Positions 7,080-19,418 of a stretch of DNA of 25,037 nt are shown one piece after another. The notes beneath the pieces were generated by a model. It was not told the origin of the DNA. It did not search any database and was given only the letters and a program-made list of their open reading frames with translations. The position numbers were made by a program, and so were the translations under genes. The DNA is from a virus. Taxonomy: Duplodnaviria > Heunggongvirae > Uroviricota > Caudoviricetes. The first letter of the stretch is position 1. Each line of letters begins with the position of its first letter. Where the stretch lies: positions 1 through 25,037 of IMG/VR virus record IMGVR_UViG_3300045988_138129; one strand, given 5' to 3'.

Positions 7080-8153
7080 TTACTTTCCATTTTTTAATGA
7101 ATTGATTAACGATGCTATTTGCTCAATGCCATCAAATGTAGATGGTATCTTATCATCGGATAGCATGATGTTTGAAAATACTACGTCTTCGAATTTTGAA
7201 AGCGCTTCCGGATTGTTTTTCCTTATCTCTGAGGAATAGTCGCTATAACTCTGAATGAACTGACAAAGGCTCTTTCTGAGTTCTATTTGCATAATCTGAG
7301 TTCGTAACGATATATGATTTAGCAGTACAACTCTAAAGTAATACATGAAAATCAATGTAACTGATGCAAAAGGTAGTGCTGACATAAAATATGTGGCAGC
7401 ATTTGTCGTTTCGAGAGCTGGTAATTTATGCATTCCATAGTATATCAGCGGGGAGGGAATGATTATAGCCAAGATGATAAGAGTTATTCTTGATAGCATG
7501 ATTTCACTTTCTTTCTTTTTGCCAAGTGAATTAAAGCCTTCAAACAATCCAACAAAATTAAATGCGACCTCATACCCTTTTAATGACTCTTTGATTGACT
7601 CTATTTTGGCATGTTGCTCCTTTAAGAAGGAGTCGCACTTTTCGAAAAATTGACGCCCTTCGTTTAAACTATCAATGTATTTTTTATATGTGTCAACATT
7701 GCTGGAGCTTAAAACTTCTTTAACCATTGCTAATGGCAGTTCTCTAAGAGAAAAGTCTATCTGTGCTCTGCTCCGCTCATCGAATTCATTATAGTTATAC
7801 AGAGCAAAATCCTTGATGGTTCTTAGTGGTGAAAAGTGAGACTCTATTTCCGGAGAGAGAATGCTTGGTTCAATGATAAATCTAAAAAAGCAAGTGAATA
7901 TAAGGTTGATGCTGTTGTTATCTTCTCCCTTTTCTCTTAAGAAACTTTTAAAGGTGTCGCCAATCATAGCAATGTTGTACTGGGATTTTTTGTCCCAATC
8001 TTCAGGGTTTTCGGAAATGAAGTTTATTGCTTGAGCAATTATTTTGTTTCTGCTTGATTCAAAGTTTGTGCCGGGAGTCAGCGTGTTCAAAAAGACCAGA
8101 TAATCTTTGAACAATTCTTTCATTGTTTCTGACGAGAAAAAGTAAGTACTCAT
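7080..8153 (-). CDS. Hypothetical two-TM membrane protein in the S-V accessory position; candidate abortive-infection or defense protein
   Basis: Uninterrupted minus-strand ORF, AT-rich by eye. Soluble N-terminal ~240 aa, two hydrophobic helices (LSRITLIILAIIIPSPLIYYG; AATYFMSALPFASVTLIFMYYFRVVLL), C-terminal ~85 aa tail. ATG at 8153 (MSTYFF...) gives 358 aa and avoids overlapping V; alternative starts are GTG at 8249 (389 aa, overlaps V) and ATG at 8123. Confidence 0.75.
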   Translation of the reverse strand: MSTYFFSSETMKELFKDYLVFLNTLTPGTNFESSRNKIIAQAINFISENPEDWDKKSQYNIAMIGDTFKSFLREKGEDNNSINLIFTCFFRFIIEPSILSPEIESHFSPLRTIKDFALYNYNEFDERSRAQIDFSLRELPLAMVKEVLSSSNVDTYKKYIDSLNEGRQFFEKCDSFLKEQHAKIESIKESLKGYEVAFNFVGLFEGFNSLGKKKESEIMLSRITLIILAIIIPSPLIYYGMHKLPALETTNAATYFMSALPFASVTLIFMYYFRVVLLNHISLRTQIMQIELRKSLCQFIQSYSDYSSEIRKNNPEALSKFEDVVFSNIMLSDDKIPSTFDGIEQIASLINSLKNGK

Positions 8154-8239
8154 AATGGATTTTGTTGTCCCTTGTTGTTCTGTGCACCAGAAATCGTGGT
8201 GTGATTTACTTCGAGATTGTACAGAATCATTATTATCGA
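8154..8239. promoter_or_regulatory. Divergent intergenic region, expected site of the V late promoter and of the cargo-gene promoter
   Basis: 86-bp gap between the cargo-gene start (8153, minus) and the V start (8240, plus), containing TTGTTGT...TTGTTCTGT elements. Called from position only. Confidence 0.3.
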
Positions 8240-8869
8240 ATGAATGCACAATACAATGAAATTCTTCGCTTTATACGCAATATGATTCGCACTGGCATTA
8301 TCGTCGAAACCGACCTTAATGCCGGTCGCTGCCGTGTGCAGACCGGCGGCATGTGCACCGACTGGCTTCAGTGGCTGACCCATCGCGCCGGTCGTTCGCG
8401 CACATGGTGGGCACCTTCCGTGGGGGAACAGGTGCTGATTCTGGCCGTGGGCGGTGAACTCGACACGGCGTTCGTTCTGCCGGGGATTTATTCCGGCGAT
8501 AACCCCGCGCCGTCGGCGTCGGCGGATGCCCTGCATATCCGTTTCCCTGACGGGGCGGTGATTGAGTATGAACCTGAAACCAGTGCACTCACGGTAAGCG
8601 GAATTAAAACGGCCAGCGTGACGGCTTCTGATTCTGTTACTGCCACGGTGCCGGTGGTCATGGTGAAAGCATCAACCCGCGTCACCCTGGACACACCGGA
8701 GGTGGTCTGCACCAACAAGCTGATTACCGGCACGCTGGAAGTGCAGAAGGGCGGGACGATGCGCGGCAACATTGAACACACCGGCGGTGAACTTTCATCA
8801 AACGGGAAGGTACTGCATACCCATAAACACCCCGGCGACAGCGGCGGCACAACCGGGAGTCCTCTATGA
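8240..8869 (+). CDS. V: Baseplate spike / assembly protein gpV
   Basis: MNAQYNEILRFIRNMIRTGIIVETDLNAGRCRVQTGGMCTDWLQWLTHRAGRSRTWWAPSVGEQ... matches P2 gpV. The ORF-track start at 8162 is an upstream extension. Confidence 0.93.
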   Translation: MNAQYNEILRFIRNMIRTGIIVETDLNAGRCRVQTGGMCTDWLQWLTHRAGRSRTWWAPSVGEQVLILAVGGELDTAFVLPGIYSGDNPAPSASADALHIRFPDGAVIEYEPETSALTVSGIKTASVTASDSVTATVPVVMVKASTRVTLDTPEVVCTNKLITGTLEVQKGGTMRGNIEHTGGELSSNGKVLHTHKHPGDSGGTTGSPL

Positions 8870-10659: not shown

Positions 10660-12750
10660 ATGAGCACAAAATTCAAAACCGTTATCACCACTGCCGGTGC
10701 AGCAAAGCTGGCAGCGGCAACCGCACCGGGAGGGCGGAAGGTCAACATTACCACGATGGCCGTCGGGGATGGCGGTGGTAAATTGCCTGTCCCGGATGCC
10801 GGACAGACCGGGCTTATCCATGAAGTCTGGCGACATGCGCTGAACAAAATCAGCCAGGACAAACGAAACAGTAATTATATTATCGCAGAGCTGGTTATTC
10901 CGCCGGAGGTGGGCGGTTTCTGGATGCGTGAACTTGGCCTGTACGATGATGCGGGAACGCTAATTGCCGTGGCGAACATGGCCGAAAGTTATAAGCCAGC
11001 CCTTGCCGAAGGCTCAGGGCGTTCGCAGACCTGCCGCATGGTCATCATCGTCAGCAGTGTGGCCTCAGTGGAGCTGACCATTGACACCACAACGGTGATG
11101 GCAACGCAGGATTACGTTGATGACAAAATTGCAGAACATGAACAGTCACGACGTCACCCTGACGCCTCGCTGACCGCAAAAGGTTTTACTCAGTTAAGCA
11201 GTGCGACCAACAGCACGTCTGAAACACTGGCTGCAACTCCGAAAGCGGTTAAGGCCGCATATGACCTTGCTAACGGGAAATATACCGCACAGGACGCTAC
11301 CACCGCGCGAAAAGGCCTTGTTCAGCTCAGTAGTGCGACTAACAGCACGTCTGAAACGCTCGCCGCAACGCCGAAAGCGGTAAAGGCAGCATATGACCTT
11401 GCTAACGGGAAATACACTGCACAGGATGCCACAACAGCGCGAAAAGGCCTTGTTCAGCTCAGTAGCGCCACCAACAGCGATTCTGAAACGCTTGCGGCAA
11501 CGCCAAAGGCGGTTAAGACAGCATATGACCTTGCTAACGGGAAATACACTGCACAGGATGCCACCACGGCGCGAAAAGGTCTTGTCCAGCTCAGTAGCGC
11601 CACCAACAGTGATTCTGAAACGCAGGCTGCAACGCCAAAGGCGGTGAAGTCTGCCTATGACAATGCTGAAAAACGTCTTCAGAAAGATCAGAACGGTGCG
11701 GATATTCCGGGAAAGGATACCTTCACGAAAAATATCGGTGCCTGTCGTGCTTATAGCGGCGCTTTGAGCACTGAAGCCGGAAACTGGACAACCGCTCAGT
11801 TTATTGAATGGCTGGATTCCCGTGGTGCATTTAATCATCCGTACTGGATGTGCAAAGGCTCCTGGTCATATGCAAATAACAAAATCATTACGGATACTGG
11901 CTGTGGCAATATTCATCTTGCTGGCGCTGTTATTGAGGTAATGGGCATAAAGTCTGCAATGACTATTCGTATTACCACACCAACAACATCAAGCGGTGGG
12001 GGCACTACAAGCGCGCAATTTACTTATATTAACCACGGGGACAACTATGCTCCTGGCTGGCGGCGTGACTGGAACCGTTACGGCGATTCTATGTCTGGAA
12101 CTATTAATCAGGATAGTGGAAGCCAGAATGCCTATATGTCTACGGCCTTATGTTCCGGCACCAGAGGCGGCAAAAAATATCTCAGAAAGTTTCGTGGTGG
12201 AGAAGGAGACACTATCTGGCATGAAACAGTACAGGGCGGGGTAATTCGCTGGGCGACAGGTAATACTGATGCTCAGGAAGAATTATCACTCAGCTCTGCT
12301 TATGGTCTTCGTTCAAGAGGTGAAATTACATCGCTCAGTGCTAATGGTCTGCGCATTGCTTATGGCAATTATGGATTCTTTATCAGGAATGATGGCGGCA
12401 GCACATATTTAATGCTGACGGCCTCTGGCGATAAATTTGGAACATGGAACGGTTTAAGACCGCTGACTATCAATAACGCCAATGGCGGAGTGTCAATGGG
12501 GCATGGCCTGAGTGTTACTGGACGTGTTAACCCATCAGATTACGGAAATTTTGATTCCCGCTATGTGAAAGATGTTCGCCTGGGTACGCGTGTTGTTCAG
12601 ACCATGCAAAAAGGCGTGATGTATGAGAAATCAGGCCATGTAATTACAGGGCTTGGCATTGTCGGCGAAGTTGATGGCGATGATCCGGCAGTATTCAGAC
12701 CAATACAAAAATACATTAATGGCACATGGTATAACGTCGCACAGGTGTAA
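10660..12750 (+). CDS. H: Tail fiber protein gpH, with an internal tandem-repeat shaft segment
   Basis: 696 aa; N-terminus MSTKFKTVITTAGAAKLAAATAPGGRKVNITTMAVGDGGG... is the conserved P2-type fiber anchor. The C-terminal third is AT-richer and likely the host-range-determining region. Confidence 0.92.
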   Translation: MSTKFKTVITTAGAAKLAAATAPGGRKVNITTMAVGDGGGKLPVPDAGQTGLIHEVWRHALNKISQDKRNSNYIIAELVIPPEVGGFWMRELGLYDDAGTLIAVANMAESYKPALAEGSGRSQTCRMVIIVSSVASVELTIDTTTVMATQDYVDDKIAEHEQSRRHPDASLTAKGFTQLSSATNSTSETLAATPKAVKAAYDLANGKYTAQDATTARKGLVQLSSATNSTSETLAATPKAVKAAYDLANGKYTAQDATTARKGLVQLSSATNSDSETLAATPKAVKTAYDLANGKYTAQDATTARKGLVQLSSATNSDSETQAATPKAVKSAYDNAEKRLQKDQNGADIPGKDTFTKNIGACRAYSGALSTEAGNWTTAQFIEWLDSRGAFNHPYWMCKGSWSYANNKIITDTGCGNIHLAGAVIEVMGIKSAMTIRITTPTTSSGGGTTSAQFTYINHGDNYAPGWRRDWNRYGDSMSGTINQDSGSQNAYMSTALCSGTRGGKKYLRKFRGGEGDTIWHETVQGGVIRWATGNTDAQEELSLSSAYGLRSRGEITSLSANGLRIAYGNYGFFIRNDGGSTYLMLTASGDKFGTWNGLRPLTINNANGGVSMGHGLSVTGRVNPSDYGNFDSRYVKDVRLGTRVVQTMQKGVMYEKSGHVITGLGIVGEVDGDDPAVFRPIQKYINGTWYNVAQV
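11185..11658 (+). repeat. In-frame tandem repeat inside H, ~3.6 copies of a 132-bp (44-aa) unit
   Basis: Unit boundaries at 11185, 11317, 11449 and 11581. Encoded unit (F/L)(T/V)QLSSATNS(T/D)SETLAATPKAVKAAYDLANGKYTAQDATTARKG. Minus-strand ORF 11194..11838 and short plus ORFs here are repeat-generated shadows. Confidence 0.9.
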
Positions 12751-12753
12751 TTT

Positions 12754-13281
12754 ATGCAGCATTTAAAAAATATTACTGCGGGTAATCCCAAAACTGTTGC
12801 CCAATATCAACTGACAAAAAATTTTGATGTTATCTGGTTATGGTCTGAAGACGGAAAAAACTGGTATGAGGAAGTAAGTAATTTTCAGGAAGACACGATA
12901 AAGATTGTTTACGACGAGAATAATATAATTGTCGGCATCACCAGAGATGCTTCAACGCTTAACCCTGAAGGTTTTAGCGTTGTCGAGGTTCCTGATATTA
13001 CCGCCAACCGACGTGCTGATGACTCAGGTAAATGGATGTTTAAGGATGGTGCCGTGATTAAGCGGATTTATACGGCAGACGAACAGCAGCAACTGGCAGA
13101 ATCACAAAAGGCAACTTTACTTTCCGAAGCTGAATCCGTGATTTTGCCGCTGGAGCGCGCTGTCAGGCTGAATATGGCAACAGATGAGGAGCGCAGCCGA
13201 CTGGAAGCATGGGAACGCTACAGCGTTCTGGTCAGTCGTGTGGATCCTGCAAATCCTGAATGGCCGGAAATGCCGCAATAA
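12754..13281 (+). CDS. G: Tail fiber assembly chaperone gpG
   Basis: 175 aa, [41 protein letters not shown]...; Tfa-type fiber assembly protein immediately after H. Confidence 0.9.
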
Positions 13282-13326
13282 GTTGTATGAGCTGACATAC
13301 CTATAGCACAGAGTAAAGTCTAATCT

Positions 13327-13355
13327 GACAGTCCGCTCTGTGCCAAGAGCAGACG
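13327..13355. repeat. Near-palindromic site A (GACAGTCCGCT-ctgtgccaag-AGCAGAC), left boundary of the transporter cassette
   Basis: 7-bp arms GTCCGCT / AGCAGAC with one central mismatch, 10-nt core. Related to sites B (17003) and C (18008). Lies in the 315-bp gap between G and the BetT-like gene. Confidence 0.6.
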
Positions 13356-13596
13356 CTGGTAATTCGTGCCTAATATACTTCACTTAACTTATATCCCAGC
13401 TTTGATACAGATCATACAAATTAAATGCCCCAGTAATTGGCAGGCTGAGTAACTTAAAACTCCTTAGAATATAGGATGATTTGTATCGGCACTCATTCCA
13501 CCATGCATTCCGATTAATCCCGCATAGCCAGTTGAACTTTGCTACTCTGTGAGAGGTAGTACCTTCTATCCAGTGCGGATTTAATTAATGGAATAA

Positions 13597-15600
13597 ATGA
13601 TTATGAGTGAAAATGATACAACCCCAAAGAAGTCTACAAGCCAGGTTAACAAAGCGGTATTCTTTACATCTGCTTTGCTAATTTTCCTTCTTGTCGCCTT
13701 TGCCGCCGTATTCCCGGATGTCGCCGACAAAAATTTTAAACTACTTCAGCAACAAATCTTCACGAATGCCAGCTGGTTCTACATACTTGCTGTGGCCCTG
13801 ATTTTACTGAGCGTCACGTTCCTTGGACTCTCACGTTACGGTGATATAAAGCTGGGCCCAGACCATGCGCAGCCTGATTTCAGCTACCACTCCTGGTTCG
13901 CGATGCTTTTTTCGGCAGGGATGGGGATCGGCCTGATGTTCTTTGGCGTTGCCGAACCTGTGATGCATTATCTTTCGCCACCTGTCGGCACTCCAGAGAC
14001 CGTTGCGGCAGCGAAGGAAGCCATGCGCCTGACGTTCTTCCACTGGGGTCTGCACGCATGGGCAATTTATGCCATCGTGGCGCTGATTCTGGCCTTTTTC
14101 AGTTACCGTCACGGTCTGCCTTTAACGCTGCGTTCTGCGCTCTATCCCATTATCGGCGATCGCATTTACGGGCCTATAGGCCACGCGGTTGATATCTTCG
14201 CCGTGATAGGCACTGTCTTTGGCGTTGCAACATCGCTGGGTTACGGTGTATTGCAGGTGAATGCCGGTTTGAACCATCTTTTCGGCGTGCCCATCAATGA
14301 AACGGTACAGGTCATTTTGATCGTGGTCATCACGGGGTTAGCGACGATTTCGGTGGTGTCCGGCCTGGACAAGGGAATACGCATCCTGTCTGAGCTTAAT
14401 CTGGGCCTGGCGGTGTTGCTCCTGGCGCTGGTCTTGTGCCTGGGTCCCACTGTGCTTCTGCTGAAGTCATTTGTGGAAAATACGGGTGGTTATCTGTCGG
14501 AACTGGTGAGTAAAACGTTCAACCTTTACGCGTATGAACCCAAGTCGAGCAACTGGCTGGGGGGCTGGACATTATTATACTGGGGATGGTGGCTTTCATG
14601 GTCGCCGTTTGTAGGTATGTTCATTGCACGCGTTTCCCGCGGCAGGACAATTCGTGAGTTCGTGACTGGCGTGTTGTTTGTTCCCGCCGGCTTTACGCTC
14701 ATGTGGATGACGGTGTTTGGAAACAGCGCCATCTATCTCATCATGAACCAGGGCGCCACTGACCTCGCCAATACCGTTCAGCAGGATGTTGCGCTTGCCC
14801 TGTTTAATTTCCTGGAGCATTTCCCGTTCTCTTCCGTGCTGTCATTCATTGCAATGGCGATGGTCATCGTCTTCTTTGTAACGTCTGCTGATTCGGGGGC
14901 AATGGTTGTGGATACTCTGGCATCAGGTGGGGTGGCAAACACGCCCGTCTGGCAGCGAATTTTCTGGGCATTGCTCATGGGCGTTGTTGCTATTGCCCTG
15001 CTGATCGCAGGGGGGCTGAGTGCGTTGCAAACCGTAACGATAGCGAGTGCATTGCCCTTCTCAGTTATCTTATTAATATCCATATACGGACTGTTAAAAG
15101 CCCTGCGTCGGGATTTGACCAAGCGTGAAAGCCTTAGCATGGCGACTATTGCTCCTACGGCTGCACGTAACCCAATTCCTTGGCAGAGAAGGTTACGCAA
15201 TATCGCGTATTTGCCGAAGCGCTCTCTTGTGAAACGTTTTATGGACGACATTATCCAACCCGCCATGACGCTGGTTCAGGAGGAACTTAACAAGCAGGGA
15301 ACGATAAGCCACATCAGTGACGCCGCCGAGGATCGTATTCGCCTTGAAGTCGATTTGGGCAACGAGCTGAATTATATATATGAAGTGAGGCTTCGCGGGT
15401 ATAACTCACCGACCTTCGCGCTCGCTGCGCTGGATAATGATGAGCAGCAGAGTGAACAACATCGATATTATCGCGCTGAAGTCTATCTCAAAGAGGGCGG
15501 CCAAAATTATGATGTAATGGGCTGGAATCAGGAACAGCTGATTAATGACATACTGGACCAGTACGAAAAACACCTGCACTTCCTGCATCTGGTTCGTTAA
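13597..15600 (+). CDS. BCCT-family transporter, BetT-like (choline/betaine-type), full length with long C-terminal cytoplasmic domain
   Basis: 667 aa, ~12 hydrophobic helices. BCCT signature GWTLLYWGWWLSWSPFVGMFIARVSRGRTIREF. Conserved blocks resembling BetT at both ends (YGDIKLGP...AMLFSAGMGIGLMFFGVAEPV; QEQLINDILDQYEKHLHFLHL). Alternative start ATG at 13603. Confidence 0.85.
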   Translation: MIMSENDTTPKKSTSQVNKAVFFTSALLIFLLVAFAAVFPDVADKNFKLLQQQIFTNASWFYILAVALILLSVTFLGLSRYGDIKLGPDHAQPDFSYHSWFAMLFSAGMGIGLMFFGVAEPVMHYLSPPVGTPETVAAAKEAMRLTFFHWGLHAWAIYAIVALILAFFSYRHGLPLTLRSALYPIIGDRIYGPIGHAVDIFAVIGTVFGVATSLGYGVLQVNAGLNHLFGVPINETVQVILIVVITGLATISVVSGLDKGIRILSELNLGLAVLLLALVLCLGPTVLLLKSFVENTGGYLSELVSKTFNLYAYEPKSSNWLGGWTLLYWGWWLSWSPFVGMFIARVSRGRTIREFVTGVLFVPAGFTLMWMTVFGNSAIYLIMNQGATDLANTVQQDVALALFNFLEHFPFSSVLSFIAMAMVIVFFVTSADSGAMVVDTLASGGVANTPVWQRIFWALLMGVVAIALLIAGGLSALQTVTIASALPFSVILLISIYGLLKALRRDLTKRESLSMATIAPTAARNPIPWQRRLRNIAYLPKRSLVKRFMDDIIQPAMTLVQEELNKQGTISHISDAAEDRIRLEVDLGNELNYIYEVRLRGYNSPTFALAALDNDEQQSEQHRYYRAEVYLKEGGQNYDVMGWNQEQLINDILDQYEKHLHFLHLVR

Positions 15601-15607
15601 CAGCAAC

Positions 15608-15636
15608 ATGCCGCCACAGAGGCGGCATTTATTTAT
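15608..15636 (+). terminator. Rho-independent terminator after the BetT-like gene
   Basis: ATGCCGCC-acag-GGCGGCAT hairpin followed by TTATTTAT, 8 nt after the stop at 15600. Confidence 0.75.
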
Positions 15637-15663
15637 CCCGGCTGCAATATGAGGGAATGCAGA

Positions 15664-16941
15664 ATGATTTCACGCTGGAAATGGATGCTGAAGCAGACAT
15701 TTAAAAAACTATGGTTCAGGGCAACGTTATTCGCAATTGTCGCAATAATAACGGCCCTTTTATCAATTCTTTTTAAATCAATGATACCTGAGTCGGTTTC
15801 CGTGAAGGTTGGTGCGGAAGCAGTCGATAACATTCTGAACATACTGGCATCGAGTATGCTGGCAGTGACCACATTTTCGCTGAGCATCATGGTCACAGCC
15901 TACGGTTCAGCCACTACTAATGTGACTCCCAGAGCTACTCGTTTAGTTGTTGAAGACGTCACCACACAAAATGTACTGGCCACCTTCATCGGTTCTTTTC
16001 TCTTCAGTCTGGTAGGGATTATTGCCCTCAATATGGGAGCTTATGGAGAAAGGGGGAGAGTCATTTTATTCATTGTAACACTGGTTGTCATTGCCTTAAT
16101 CCTCATCACATTGCTTCGCTGGATACAGCATTTGACCTCTCTGGGGAGGGTTGGTGAGACAACGGCAAAAGTAGAACAGGCGGCCATCGAAACATTTATT
16201 GCGAGAGCAAGAAATCCCTGTCTCGGCGGATATCCATGGCTTGAGAACAATGAACAGCCGAAAGGAACGGTTGCAGTTTATCCGAAAAAGATTGGCTATG
16301 TTGAATATGTTGATATGGTGAAACTCAGCAAGCTGCTGACCAATGATCCCCGTCATGTATACCTCGTGGCGCAGCCGGGCAGTTTCATACATCCGTCCAC
16401 GCCAGTTTTGTACCTGAGTCAGGGCCAGGAGTCATCAATCAGCACCGATTTACTTGAGACGATTATTGTCTCGGATGTACGTTCATTTGCTCAGGACCCC
16501 CGATTTTGTCTTAGCGTCATGGCCGAAATAGCCTGCCGAGCCCTTTCCCCCGCAGTGAACGATCCTGGAACCGCCATTGATGTCATTGGCAGAGGTGTAC
16601 GTATACTTTCCGCTTACGCGCAGAATAAATCTGATGAAATAGAAGTGAAATATCCTTCTGTACATGTTGCACCACTTCAGAATAACGATCTACTTGAAGA
16701 CTTTTTCTCACCTGTTGCGCGCGATGGTGCCAGTATGAGGGAAATTCAGATAAGGGTCCTTAAAGGACTGTCGATGCTGAGTAAGGGTTGGCCTGGAATT
16801 TTTGCTGAAGCCGCACAAACCCTAGCATTTGAAACATTAGAGCATGCTACTCGTGCTGACCATATAGATTCTGACAGATATCTAATAAAATCAATTTATT
16901 ATAATTTATTTAGTGGCGAAGATTCTAATAAAAAACCATAG
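15664..16941 (+). CDS. Membrane protein with four N-terminal TM helices and a large cytoplasmic domain; DUF2254-like (family assignment from memory, uncertain)
   Basis: GAGGG RBS before the ATG at 15664 (MISRWKWMLKQ...); the ORF-track start at 15649 is less likely. Four hydrophobic helices in the first ~160 aa. Conserved-looking block SFAQDPRFCLSVMAEIACRALSPAVNDPGTAIDVIGRG. Confidence 0.75.
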   Translation: MISRWKWMLKQTFKKLWFRATLFAIVAIITALLSILFKSMIPESVSVKVGAEAVDNILNILASSMLAVTTFSLSIMVTAYGSATTNVTPRATRLVVEDVTTQNVLATFIGSFLFSLVGIIALNMGAYGERGRVILFIVTLVVIALILITLLRWIQHLTSLGRVGETTAKVEQAAIETFIARARNPCLGGYPWLENNEQPKGTVAVYPKKIGYVEYVDMVKLSKLLTNDPRHVYLVAQPGSFIHPSTPVLYLSQGQESSISTDLLETIIVSDVRSFAQDPRFCLSVMAEIACRALSPAVNDPGTAIDVIGRGVRILSAYAQNKSDEIEVKYPSVHVAPLQNNDLLEDFFSPVARDGASMREIQIRVLKGLSMLSKGWPGIFAEAAQTLAFETLEHATRADHIDSDRYLIKSIYYNLFSGEDSNKKP

Positions 16942-17002
16942 TTGCGGAGCAAGCGATACGGTTGTTGGCAAGTCAAGGGCAAAGCATTCGCGTGAGAGTG
17001 GG

Positions 17003-17027
17003 CGTCTGCTTTGTGCCAACAGCGGAC
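17003..17027. repeat. Near-palindromic site B (GTCTGCT-ttgtgccaac-AGCGGAC), between the convergent DUF2254-like and HNH genes
   Basis: Core 8/10 identical to site A in direct orientation. Its arms are the reciprocal variants of site A's arms (A: GTCCGCT/AGCAGAC; B: GTCTGCT/AGCGGAC). Confidence 0.6.
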
Positions 17028-17081
17028 ATTATAGATGGTATATGTAGAAAGTGAACATGCGTAGATTGTATGATTTAGCCG

Positions 17082-17891
17082 TCACTTAATTATTGGATAA
17101 CTCACACAAGTATGACCGTTGCTTATCGCATACATTTGGTTTCCCTTAAGATTTACAAATGGAAATGTCGTATACTCATAATTTATAGAGGTCATATTAA
17201 ATGTAAGGAATTTATCTTCAAGTTCTAATTTTGTAGAGTGGGCAGGGTATGTTCCTTCATTTCTCATTGTGATAATAAAACCGATAGGAAAAAAATGTAA
17301 AGCACAAATAAATGCCACATGTCCTTCGTTCATAAATGCTACACTTTGAGCGGATATGTGCATTCTGTGTGGGTAAAACCAGTAGTAAATATCATGAGTT
17401 TCCTCAAAACTTGAATTTTTACCCAAAACATAATCCTTTAAAGGTGTATAGAAGGGGCTATCTACGGGTTCTTTTTTACAATCTTCAACTGAAGTTGCTG
17501 ATAGCACGTGCCCAATCATAGCCTTAGTGAAAGATATGCTATCAAAAGGTATTCTAATGAATGGATATACATTCATACCATTCATATATCGACTTAACTG
17601 TTCTTTAAAGGACTTTGTTACATTTTCAATTGCAACATCGAGCCCACCTAATACCTTATTGTTACAGTGGCTGCAAATGGTTCTGAAATAAGAGCCATTT
17701 TTAGCATTTAATGGTTTAACTGGTTCCTGAATACCAAAAAATTCGCTAACTGTTTTCTGCAAAACAGGGCCTAAGGTTATGGCGCACTTTGGAGGAACAT
17801 GATCTTTTGTGAGCAAGCCATATTTCCCACAAATATTGCAATAACCTTCAGTAATGCCATTGTGCTTCCATCGTTCACTAATTTTCGTCAT
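17082..17891 (-). CDS. HNH endonuclease-domain protein (N-terminal HNH motif, C-terminal domain of unknown function)
   Basis: 269 aa, AT-rich, GAGGGA RBS before the ATG at 17891. Motif C-N-I-C-G-x9-D-H-V-P-P-K ... N-x12-C-S-H-C-N-N-K fits the CxxC...(D/H)H..P...N...CxxC(N)xK HNH zinc-finger nuclease pattern. Confidence 0.78.
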   Translation of the reverse strand: MTKISERWKHNGITEGYCNICGKYGLLTKDHVPPKCAITLGPVLQKTVSEFFGIQEPVKPLNAKNGSYFRTICSHCNNKVLGGLDVAIENVTKSFKEQLSRYMNGMNVYPFIRIPFDSISFTKAMIGHVLSATSVEDCKKEPVDSPFYTPLKDYVLGKNSSFEETHDIYYWFYPHRMHISAQSVAFMNEGHVAFICALHFFPIGFIITMRNEGTYPAHSTKLELEDKFLTFNMTSINYEYTTFPFVNLKGNQMYAISNGHTCVSYPIIK

Positions 17892-18007
17892 TTTTATTCC
17901 CTCAGTAGCATAAGCTATCTATACGTTTTTTAATCCTATCAAAGATACAACTTAACGTCAGGAAAATGATAGTGTTTATCTAAGTAATACAATTAACTTC
18001 AACGCGT

Positions 18008-18039
18008 GACAGTCTGCTTTTCGCTCAAAGCAGACTGTC
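18008..18039. repeat. Perfect palindrome site C (GACAGTCTGCTTT-tcgctc-AAAGCAGACTGTC) upstream of the HNH gene
   Basis: 13-bp perfect inverted arms around a 6-nt centre. The arms share the GACAGTC(T/C)GCT...AGCAGAC sequence with sites A and B. No T-run follows, so it is not a classic terminator; it could be a recombination site or operator. Confidence 0.65.
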
Positions 18040-18103
18040 AGATTTGATAGCGTTTTGGCTATGTAAATTGTCAGTCGGAAAATGAGTGAGTACAAACTAG
18101 GAC

Positions 18104-18128
18104 AGGCGGGCGAATTGCCCGCCTTTTC
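18104..18128 (+). terminator. Rho-independent terminator (plus orientation) just upstream of the FI promoter region
   Basis: AGGCGGGC-gaatt-GCCCGCCT hairpin followed by TTTTCT. Confidence 0.7.
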
Positions 18129-18227
18129 TGTATCTGTTGTTTCATCCACTGACCAGACAGATCAAATAGCGTCTCATGCTCTGTACAACAGAAAATAGTT
18201 GCACCCATTAACCACGGAGTTAAACGG
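18129..18227 (+). promoter_or_regulatory. Expected late promoter region for the FI-FII-E-T-U-D operon
   Basis: Called from position: the ~100 bp upstream of FI after the terminator, containing a TGTTGTTTCATCC...CCAGACAGA element. I could not confirm an exact match to the late-promoter dyad I recall from the P2 literature. Confidence 0.3.
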
Positions 18228-19418
18228 ATGAGTGACTATCATCACGGCGTGCAGGTGCTGGAGATTAACGACGGCACCCGCGTCATTTCAACCGTATCCA
18301 CCGCCATTGTCGGCATGGTCTGCACGGCCAGCGATGCGGATGCGGAAACCTTCCCCCTCAATAAACCGGTGCTGATTACCAATGTGCAGAGCGCAATTGC
18401 AAAGGCCGGTAAAAAAGGCACGCTGGCGGCATCGTTGCAGGCCATCGCTGACCAGTCAAAACCGGTCACCGTTGTTGTGCGCGTGGAAGACGGCACCGGC
18501 GACGACGAAGAAACGAAACTCGCGCAGACCGTTTCCAATATCATCGGCACCACCGACGAAAACGGTCAGTACACCGGACTGAAAGCCCTGCTGGCGGCGG
18601 AGTCGGTAACCGGTGTTAAACCGCGTATTCTCGGCGTACCGGGACTGGATACCAAAGAGGTGGCTGTTGCACTGGCATCAGTCTGTCAGAAGTTGCGCGC
18701 TTTCGGGTATATCAGCGCATGGGGCTGTAAAACCATTTCCGAGGTGAAAGCTTACCGCCAGAATTTCAGCCAGCGTGAGCTGATGGTCATCTGGCCGGAT
18801 TTCCTCGCATGGGATACGGTCACCAGTACCACCGCCACCGCGTATGCTACCGCCCGTGCGCTGGGTCTGCGTGCCAAAATCGACCAGGAGCAGGGCTGGC
18901 ATAAAACGCTGTCCAACGTCGGGGTGAACGGTGTTACCGGCATCAGCGCATCTGTATTCTGGGATTTGCAGGAGTCCGGCACCGATGCTGACCTGCTTAA
19001 CGAGTCAGGCGTCACAACACTGATTCGCCGTGACGGTTTCCGCTTCTGGGGTAACCGTACCTGCTCTGATGACCCGCTGTTCCTCTTTGAAAACTACACC
19101 CGCACCGCACAGGTACTGGCCGACACGATGGCTGAGGCGCACATGTGGGCGGTGGACAAGCCCATCACCGCAACGCTGATTCGTGACATCGTTGACGGCA
19201 TCAATGCCAAATTCCGTGAGCTGAAAACAAACGGCTATATCGTGGATGCGACCTGCTGGTTTAGCGAAGAATCCAACGATGCGGAAACCCTCAAGGCCGG
19301 AAAACTGTATATCGACTACGACTATACCCCGGTGCCTCCTCTTGAAAACCTGACCCTGCGCCAGCGTATCACCGATAAATACCTGGCAAATCTGGTCACC
19401 TCGGTTAACAGCAATTAA
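18228..19418 (+). CDS. FI: Tail sheath protein gpFI
   Basis: 396 aa, MSDYHHGVQVLEINDGTRVISTVSTAIVGMVCTASDADAETFPLNKPVLITNVQ...; contractile tail sheath of P2 type. Confidence 0.95.
   Translation: MSDYHHGVQVLEINDGTRVISTVSTAIVGMVCTASDADAETFPLNKPVLITNVQSAIAKAGKKGTLAASLQAIADQSKPVTVVVRVEDGTGDDEETKLAQTVSNIIGTTDENGQYTGLKALLAAESVTGVKPRILGVPGLDTKEVAVALASVCQKLRAFGYISAWGCKTISEVKAYRQNFSQRELMVIWPDFLAWDTVTSTTATAYATARALGLRAKIDQEQGWHKTLSNVGVNGVTGISASVFWDLQESGTDADLLNESGVTTLIRRDGFRFWGNRTCSDDPLFLFENYTRTAQVLADTMAEAHMWAVDKPITATLIRDIVDGINAKFRELKTNGYIVDATCWFSEESNDAETLKAGKLYIDYDYTPVPPLENLTLRQRITDKYLANLVTSVNSN

Follow-up and report, generated by a model that had tools for sequence, protein, structure and literature searches.

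A probable betaine-transporter cassette bounded by 24 bp palindromes in the G/FI slot of a P2-like prophage

We analysed a 25,037-nucleotide stretch of tailed-phage DNA (Caudoviricetes; IMG/VR record IMGVR_UViG_3300045988_138129, positions 1 to 25,037), hereafter the window, in which a BCCT-family transporter gene that we identify as betU lies among the tail genes of an Escherichia coli P2-like (Peduovirus) prophage. Taking its three parts jointly, we consider it probable that betU encodes a betaine transporter, that it arrived within a cassette inserted at a GTGCCA site of the slot between phage genes G and FI, and that it would confer osmotolerance on the lysogen. BetU, the transposon Tn6062 and the G/FI slot as a variable moron and defence hotspot are already known; what is new here is the route by which betU would have reached the phage, namely as a cassette bounded by 24 bp sites and inserted with base precision.

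Cassette insertion in the P2 G/FI slot

The window covers the late region of the prophage, with capsid, lysis, baseplate and tail-fibre genes H and G, followed by FI, FII, E, T, U and D. A first-pass annotation, made from the sequence alone, had placed a BCCT gene inside the tail-gene cluster, and we confirmed this position: three non-P2 genes, encoding BetU, a DUF2254 membrane protein and a protein of 269 amino acids (aa), lie between G and FI (Table 1). Over positions 12700-18400 the window is 99.97% identical to a prophage of E. coli S10, which spans about 35.1 kb compared with 33.6 kb for P2, has its integrase adjoining yegR at one end and ogrK adjoining yegQ at the other, and has all P2 modules annotated. 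The P2-type prophage with betU is apparently intact. We also checked whether a host betT might have been joined to phage DNA by misassembly, and this was refuted: because the P2-betU junction recurs identically in independent assemblies and viral contigs (four complete-genome records from three strains, further NCBI assemblies and two IMG/VR contigs), and the gene is distinct from the core betT of E. coli, we give that explanation practically no weight.

An imperfect 24 bp palindrome, GTCYGCTYT-N6-ARAGCRGAC (9 bp arm, 6 bp spacer, 9 bp arm), occurs three times in the window, against an expectation of zero. All three copies, starting at 13331 (A), 17004 (B) and 18012 (C), lie exactly at junctions; the spacers of A and B are GTGCCA and that of C is TCGCTC. 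Sites A and B bound a betU-DUF2254 cassette of 3,673 bp, so that the gene first described as standing alone with its own leader and terminator is instead the leading member of a two-gene mobile cassette between recombination sites.

Comparison with the P2-like phage pro147 pointed to the manner of insertion. Its slot has a single GTGCCA site, and the window corresponds to pro147 plus exactly the A-to-B segment. Site A consists of the left arm and flank of pro147 with a new right arm, and site B of a new left arm with the right arm and flank of pro147. Because these arm polymorphisms switch at the spacer, we interpret the event as a reciprocal crossover within the spacer between a resident site and a circular betU-DUF2254 cassette. 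Eleven non-redundant loci encode an identical BetU, and in 11 of 11 the inner half-sites, like the cassette sequence next to them, do not vary, whereas outer arms and flanks differ (at least six left and at least four right contexts). These contexts comprise the P2 slot, a Mu-type prophage, a fimbrial island beside Mrr and AAA genes, relB plasmid backbones, a metabolic locus and a Rac-like slot. At site B, the left arm and flank are the same in all betU loci and the right arm and flank vary with the neighbouring cassette. Among IMG/VR viral contigs the cassette junction was found in 23, of which 18 hold it in a lambdoid DUF977/hokD slot, two in the P2 slot, one in a Mu-type prophage and two elsewhere; the cassette measures 3,672-3,673 bp throughout and is followed on the right by at least six different cassettes.

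The cassette thus probably entered the P2 slot by site-specific recombination. Homologous recombination at conserved flanks or hairpins, for example shared terminators, would fit the lack of a recombinase gene in the window and the possibility that hairpin-forming palindromes are terminators or repetitive extragenic palindromic (REP)-like elements, but the sequence common to unrelated contexts ends within the 24 bp sites, leaving homology of only 9-24 bp, and the arm polymorphisms change exactly at the spacer. Moreover, the two spacer classes are strongly tied to a tyrosine recombinase family whose distant members have other spacers and whose gene segment is circularly permuted between contexts, as described below. 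We therefore regard homologous recombination as a quite unlikely route.

The P2 Z/fun (G/FI) slot is a variable moron and defence hotspot (Calendar 1998; Vassallo 2022, PMC9519451; Egorov 2024 preprint), in which P2 itself has fun(Z), which blocks T5, and other P2-like phages carry validated defence systems. The window cargo has the features of such hotspot genes, since it lies between G and FI, differs among related phages and has an atypical base composition (GC fractions of 0.51 for betU, 0.45 for DUF2254 and 0.35 for the 269-aa gene, against 0.56 for FI); the earlier view of the transporter as phage cargo was borne out. A backbone left half-site, TAATCTGACA-GTCCRCTCT-GTGCCA, was present in 6/6 reference P2-like phages (P2, WPhi, L-413C, pro147, 12474III and YpM_46), and a backbone right half-site, TCGCTC-AAAGCAGAC-TGTCAGATTTGA, in 3/6 of them as well as in the window, with inner arms and cargo between the half-sites that are unrelated from phage to phage. 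In IMG/VR, 58 distinct cassette-side flanks were observed at 120 left docking sites of P2-type slots. The right docking site followed downstream in 85 of these 120, and only five lacked it despite more than 6 kb of sequence; the slots span 0.8-5.9 kb, and 78 of the 85 hold one cassette. A 449-aa cassette is common to the P2 slot of YpM_46 and a lambdoid slot. Site-specific recombination at variable loci of P2 had reportedly been proposed already, to judge from the title of a 2004 paper by Nilsson.

Table 1. Features of the G/FI slot and its surroundings in the window (positions are those of the 25,037-nucleotide stretch)
Feature	Position	Strand	Description	Evidence
P2 gene G, tail-fibre assembly	12754..13281	+	Left backbone gene of the slot	Pfam Caudo_TAP, 120 bits; S10 annotation as tail fiber assembly protein
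Left docking site	13319..13354	+	Backbone flank and outer arm TCTAATCTGACA GTCCGCTCT, spacer GTGCCA, cassette-derived inner arm AGAGCAGAC; site A proper 13331-13354	
betU leader	13355..13596	+	Cassette-borne, 242 bp	Cassette comparison
betU	13597..15600	+	BCCT-family glycine-betaine transporter with BetT-type C-terminal domain	Profile searches, alignments, literature (PMC4411257, PMC3139670, PMC11323884)
Hairpin, terminator- or attenuator-like	15608..15628	+	GC-rich, 8 bp stem with 6 GC pairs, weak T-tract (TTATTTAT); 8 nt after the betU stop	
DUF2254 membrane protein	15649..16941	+	Second cassette gene, 430 aa (RefSeq start 15664, 425 aa)	Pfam PF10011, 310.6 bits
Site B	17004..17027	+	Closes the betU-DUF2254 cassette on the right and joins it to the next one; GTCTGCTTT gtgcca ACAGCGGAC	
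269-aa gene	17082..17891	-	Second cassette in the slot, 35% GC	N-terminal CxxC..DHxxP..(35 aa)..CxxCN, HNH-like
Right docking site C	18012..18047	+	GTCTGCTTT tcgctc AAAGCAGAC, then backbone flank TGTCAGATTTGA	
Hairpin, strong, terminator-like	18104..18124	+	9 bp stem with 7 GC pairs, followed by TTTTCT; precedes the late-promoter region of FI	
P2 gene FI, tail sheath	18228..19418	+	Right backbone gene of the slot	Pfam Phage_sheath_1, Phage_sheath_1C, Gp18_domIII_N

Identity and substrate of the transporter

Judged by its sequence, the open reading frame is BetU, the accessory glycine-betaine transporter of Enterobacteriaceae, and not a BetT choline transporter. It encodes 667 aa, or 665 aa from the RefSeq start two codons later (ATG at 13603). 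Residues 21-506 match the BCCT profile PF02028 from end to end (all 485 profile positions; 662.8 bits, cut-off 27), which upholds the earlier statement that the protein is full length. TIGR00842 was matched at 543.6 (cut-off 407.55), and no large gaps interrupt the alignment of its core with BetP, BetT and the TMA transporter. The tryptophan-rich BCCT helix and the long BetT-type C-terminal domain noted before were likewise found: the Trp box WTLLYWGWW, a signature of transmembrane helix (TM) 8, lies at residue 322 (665-aa numbering), and the Pseudomonas syringae BetT structure 8ybq aligns over the whole length (query 7-667, E 1.5e-193), with the C-terminal domain of about 150 residues aligning throughout to 8ybq residues ~515-667. 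In P. syringae BetT this domain has a frataxin-like fold and holds a domain-swapped trimer autoinhibited until hyperosmotic stress (PMC11323884).

Overall similarity is greater to P. syringae BetT (648 bits) than to BetP of Corynebacterium glutamicum (331 bits). At the unwound stretch of TM3, by contrast, the window protein has the GMGIG motif of BetP, whereas the two solved choline transporters have GIGID (9vbn) and GISIT (8ybq). The window BetU joins a BetP-like substrate site (Trp box and GMGIG) to a BetT-like C-terminal domain. Work by Perez and colleagues from 2011 is said to have turned BetP towards choline by the substitution G153D. BetT (8ybq, and 9vbn, named a 'high-affinity choline transport protein') shares with BetU the family and the trimeric BCCT core, and that of P. 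syringae also the C-terminal domain; it differs in its choline substrate, betaine being the one reported for BetU, in the TM3 motif and in that no betIBA genes are linked to betU. BetP has the betaine substrate, GMGIG and the Trp box in common with BetU and differs in its short helical C-terminal domain and its N-terminal extension.

The window protein is 97.6% identical to the BetU of the Tn6062 locus (16 substitutions, no gaps, same length) and 97.9% identical to the allele flanked by insertion sequences (IS) on E. coli chromosomes, and its transport motifs are all identical to theirs. BetT is described as choline-specific and BetU as betaine-specific (Wood review, PMC4411257), the reported BetU substrates being glycine betaine and proline betaine (PMC4411257, PMC3139670). 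The 'BetT-like' label of the first-pass annotation accordingly keeps its force for the C-terminal domain and loses it for the choline type, since near-identical BetU alleles are reported to be betaine-specific and the motif is GMGIG.

A BetT-type choline transporter, importing choline for oxidation to betaine by host BetAB, is one alternative. The NCBIfam BetT subfamily NF007399 scores above its cut-off (751.8 bits against 695) and the NCBIfam betaine equivalog below its own (595.6 against 650), the nearest solved structure with the same C-terminal domain is the choline transporter of P. syringae, and many database records call the protein BetT. Its near-identity to BetU alleles for which betaine specificity and uptake of glycine betaine and proline betaine are reported, its BetP motif and the lack of betAB genes beside betU in the loci examined nevertheless make choline import improbable, in our assessment to much the same degree as entry by homologous recombination.

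Osmotolerance, expression and rival functions

BetU is named as the transporter of Tn6062, and with two coding sequences cloned from that element Salmonella Typhi was able to grow at 0.8 M NaCl (Holt et al. 2011, PMC3139670). Both cloning primers of that study map in the Tn6062 locus; one of them also matches the window through its specific 3' end, at 16912-16925, and the second has no match in the window within two mismatches, which we attribute to allelic divergence. Near-identity to this tested determinant makes lysogenic conversion for osmotolerance plausible. In the model that we propose, the 3,673 bp betU-DUF2254 cassette would have integrated by reciprocal crossover in the 6 bp GTGCCA spacer at the left boundary of the hotspot, into a phage that already carried the 269-aa gene in its slot, as pro147 does, with a 200-aa tyrosine recombinase as the putative catalyst in trans. 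The C-terminal domain would keep the BetU trimer autoinhibited until hyperosmotic stress, upon which betaine would be imported as a compatible solute. The lysogen would thereby gain additional, osmotically activated betaine uptake, a lysogenic conversion for salt or urine tolerance.

The gap of 315 bp 5' of betU, taken earlier for the gene's own leader, is real but composite: after 49 bp of P2 backbone come the recombination site of 24 bp (13331-13354) and a cassette leader of 242 bp, which travels with the gene. The functional Tn6062 clone contained only the last ~66 bp of that leader. The dedicated terminator proposed at the same time corresponds to an existing hairpin at 15608-15628, but its T-tract is weak and betU is the first of two genes. 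Because DUF2254 starts 20-35 nt past this hairpin, the hairpin may be an attenuator inside a betU-DUF2254 operon and not a dedicated betU terminator.

Several points weigh against the joint reading of a betaine transporter, cassette insertion and osmotolerance. Besides the two NCBIfam scores, GMGIG is suggestive and supportive rather than decisive, because the corresponding residues are not the same in the two choline transporters, and the assignment to BetU was made against the Tn6062-locus and chromosomal alleles, not the prototype BetU sequence of HU734. The recombinase gene is not encoded in the window, and the activity of the candidate at the sites is read from comparative anatomy. A sigma-70 consensus scan gave 9 matches against 9.0 expected, none of them on the + strand inside the leader, so that no promoter was recognised there, and Rfam (E <= 1 over 13200-18300) returned no recognisable riboswitch or leader RNA; for these reasons expression of betU in the lysogen is assumed. 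The transport and fitness effects of the P2-borne allele are read from near-identical alleles, and because the Tn6062 clone also held DUF2254, the share of BetU itself in growth at 0.8 M NaCl is not separated. Betaine already enters E. coli through ProP and ProU, and the benefit of betU to the lysogen may therefore be small. In a 2004 study by Ly and colleagues, betU was reportedly concluded not to be a virulence factor.

We examined how widely the gene and its partner occur. At the megablast level betU was present in 1,959/5,426 complete E. coli genomes (36%) and absent from 64%, with two E. coli alleles, one at ~93% (1,559 records) and one at >=99% (407 records). The ~93% allele lies near fec in an island flanked by IS600 and IS911, with a truncated DUF2254. 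The betU-DUF2254 pair was found on 1,539 plasmid records, mostly from Klebsiella, and on the S. Typhi IncHI1 plasmid it stands between two IS1 copies (Tn6062). Within the cassette lineage of the window, DUF2254 accompanies betU in every context, and both cassette ORFs (open reading frames) are intact and 99.9% conserved across contexts. A fresh capture of chromosomal betT by the phage, as the first-pass annotation implied, is not what this distribution describes; the cassette circulates widely on plasmids, lambdoid and Mu-type prophages and islands. PHROGs has full-length families for all three cargo proteins, each labelled as of unknown function, and together with IMG/VR it already contains betU in phages, mostly in the lambdoid prophage slot. 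A tblastn search of deposited phage genomes gave no close BetU, the best matches lying below 60% identity and many of them in doubtful 'phage' records, and neither BCCT nor betaine appears in the main text of a recent survey covering 5,945 P2-like viruses.

This distribution bears on whether the cassette is neutral cargo, hitch-hiking with a recombination system and of no benefit or not expressed. The P2 location is rare (4/20,395 E. coli records and 2/23 cassette-bearing IMG/VR contigs), it enlarges the prophage to ~35.1 kb, and both the unrecognised promoter and the ProP and ProU systems of the host would fit a neutral role. We still consider neutrality unlikely, given that both ORFs are intact and conserved across contexts, that the pair is kept on more than 1,500 plasmid records and betU in 36% of E. 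coli genomes, and that a near-identical pair gives a clear salt-tolerance phenotype. That the membrane proteins serve phage defence or superinfection exclusion instead of osmoprotection seems highly improbable to us. PADLOC (E <= 0.01) gave no match for BetU, DUF2254 or the 269-aa protein, the slot also holds clearly non-defence cargo, and BetU has the full length and all the conserved transport motifs of an ordinary transporter, against which stand the presence of fun(Z) in this slot of P2, the validated defence systems in other P2-like phages and the Mrr or AAA ATPase genes adjoining some betU cassettes. The superinfection exclusion suggested at first found no support, as PADLOC was blank and the protein shows no departure from a normal transporter.

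Of the cassette partners, the DUF2254 protein is 98.4% identical to the Tn6062 copy; its structure model had a pLDDT (predicted local distance difference test) of 78.5 and no informative fold match. Distant DUF2254 homologues in Serratia, Alloalcanivorax and Paraburkholderia do not adjoin BCCT genes. The family motif ERSFDQDPRFG...SPAVNDPGTAI is strongly conserved and lies in a confidently modelled soluble domain for which no informative solved relative was found. The 269-aa protein could be a defence or abortive-infection nuclease, because its gene occupies the G/FI slot alone in pro147. Its N-terminal arrangement is typical of zinc-HNH (His-Me finger) nucleases, with weak Pfam support (HNH_5, E 0.29), and some databases label it 'chaperonin' or 'metal-binding'. 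An 810 bp gene beside the recombinase gene in E. coli APEC O2-211 was considered as a copy of the 269-aa gene and proved unrelated (18/270 identities). The prophage has a second cargo slot between tail-completion gene S and baseplate gene V, at the position of P2 orf30, where a low-GC (~34%) ORF at 7080-8249 (-) encodes 389 aa (347-357 aa according to gene callers); it has no Pfam or PADLOC match and belongs to phrog_9373, labelled as of unknown function.

A candidate recombinase and related systems

Plasmid and Rac-like prophage arrays that hold the cassette also hold a 476-aa gene and a gene for a 200-aa 'site-specific integrase'. The segment formed by these two genes is circularly permuted, being integrated via a GTGCCA site in Rac and via a TCGCTC site on the plasmid, which is what a circular intermediate with one site of each class would give. 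The 200-aa protein is a tyrosine recombinase that consists of the catalytic domain only (PF00589, 64.8 bits against a cut-off of 27.1); its HSMRR (HxxR) and GH..VRY (GH..Y) motifs align to XerD, and the arginine of LRGCD was read in the sequence. Two known classes were tried and rejected. XerC/XerD of the pdif type scored 47 bits against 335 and 29 against 330, with a site layout here of 9-6-9 and not 11-6-11, and the palindromic site does not resemble the dif sequence. For an integron system, the IntI model gave 12.5 bits against a cut-off of 435, and the sites are 24 bp palindromes, not attC. The sfx core of the R64 shufflon, served by the tyrosine recombinase Rci, is GTGCCAA; its resemblance to the GTGCCA spacer plus A may be a coincidence, and we make no claim from it.

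Relatives of the recombinase were detected in at least 546 species-representative genomes and in 864/5,426 E. coli genomes. In 80 recombinase loci we counted 56 sites, compared with 0-5 per shuffle. The spacers among close relatives are mainly TCGCTC (17) and GTGCCA (16), and in Enterobacterales relatives a TCGCTC site lies 38-40 bp upstream and a GTGCCA site ~20 bp downstream of the recombinase gene. GGGTCG and CGGCCA occur among distant relatives: in Halomonas/Vreelandella, Pseudomonas and Burkholderiales (L037 and other loci; 61-65% identity), similar arms enclose these two spacers. These other spacer pairs suggest that spacer specificity co-evolves with the recombinase across Proteobacteria. 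From its association with the sites, the 200-aa recombinase is the likely catalyst, acting in trans.

In a wider proposal, which we put forward tentatively and with slightly less than even confidence, the P2 G/FI slot, the lambdoid DUF977/hokD slot, the Mu-type slot, IncF plasmid sites and islands may be docking platforms of one natural cassette-exchange system. It would use 24 bp sites of two heterospecific spacer classes (GTGCCA and TCGCTC) and the 200-aa recombinase, which would move cargo as circles or by double crossover and whose own gene would be a cassette. The cargo includes betU-DUF2254, HNH-like genes and defence candidates. The literature that we searched contained neither the exact site strings nor a named system matching this cassette exchange.

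Other slots were seen with the same sites. The DUF977-hokD slot of Rac/Qin-type prophages (L003, 9001-16451; L102, 6735-13497; L105, 5781-11191) is a multi-cassette array with GTGCCA and TCGCTC sites, whose interchangeable cargo comprises betU-DUF2254, a block of LysR, gamma-glutamylcyclotransferase and MFS genes, hypothetical genes and the 200-aa recombinase. On the chromosome of E. coli APEC O2-211 (L104, 7436-7459), a GTGCCA site carries the 'P2 backbone' flank TCTAATCTGACA and lies in an island with dynamin-like, patatin-like and RdcB genes and the recombinase. Because it is present in this island, the extended flank may be an accessory arm of the site and not P2-specific.

The transporter itself adds little, as betU is a known mobile osmotolerance gene and trkG of Rac is a precedent. 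A P2-type phage able to transduce betU would add another vehicle for a trait to which the success of the H58 IncHI1 plasmids of S. Typhi has been linked. The greater interest lies in the junctions, where base-precise insertion is seen in a classic phage hotspot and where plasmids, islands and prophages of the P2, lambdoid and Mu types have cassettes and sites in common. Should the small recombinase be the catalyst, it would provide a concrete mechanism for the rapid turnover long noted for cargo in phage hotspots, defence systems included, and hotspots would swap cargo between unrelated phages and plasmids in a natural analogue of recombinase-mediated cassette exchange.

Among known osmoprotection determinants, Tn6062 and E. 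coli BetU come closest: like the window pair, they constitute a mobile accessory determinant of near-identical BetU with DUF2254 downstream. In Tn6062, however, IS1 copies, which we saw at the IncHI1 locus alone, enclose the pair and the palindromic junction sites are lost. In the chromosomal island common in E. coli, IS600 and IS911 flank betU and a truncated DUF2254, whereas the window pair stands between intact recombination sites in a P2 prophage. We considered the window pair as a Tn6062 composite transposon and rejected this, as it lies between gene G and the 269-aa gene, to which palindromic sites join it, and no IS is present at its flanks. The trkG gene of the Rac prophage is likewise a prophage-borne osmoregulatory transporter gene of E. 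coli but encodes a K+ transporter subunit, lies at another position and is not bounded by 24 bp sites. In a Rac-like prophage of strain AST215 (L003, 22191-23648), betU and trkG occur together, which places two osmoregulatory transporters in one phage.

Compared with the P2 Z/fun hotspot, the window has the same G-FI slot, variable low-GC cargo and the precedent of lysogenic-conversion genes; it differs in having a transporter cassette added to a resident cassette, where most slots are single. Integron cassettes and the pdif modules of Acinetobacter resemble the present system in their promoter-poor cassettes, short sites, tyrosine recombinase, arrays and possible circular intermediates, and the arm, 6 bp spacer and arm layout of the window sites resembles that of dif-type sites. 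By contrast, integron attC sites are folded and 57-141 bp long, whereas those described here are 24 bp palindromes of a double-strand type, and the candidate recombinase is a 200-aa protein of the catalytic domain only, far below the IntI, XerC and XerD cut-offs. Finally, the platforms here are phage, plasmid and island slots in place of the integron attI, and two heterospecific spacer classes appear to frame the slot as they do in engineered recombinase-mediated cassette exchange.

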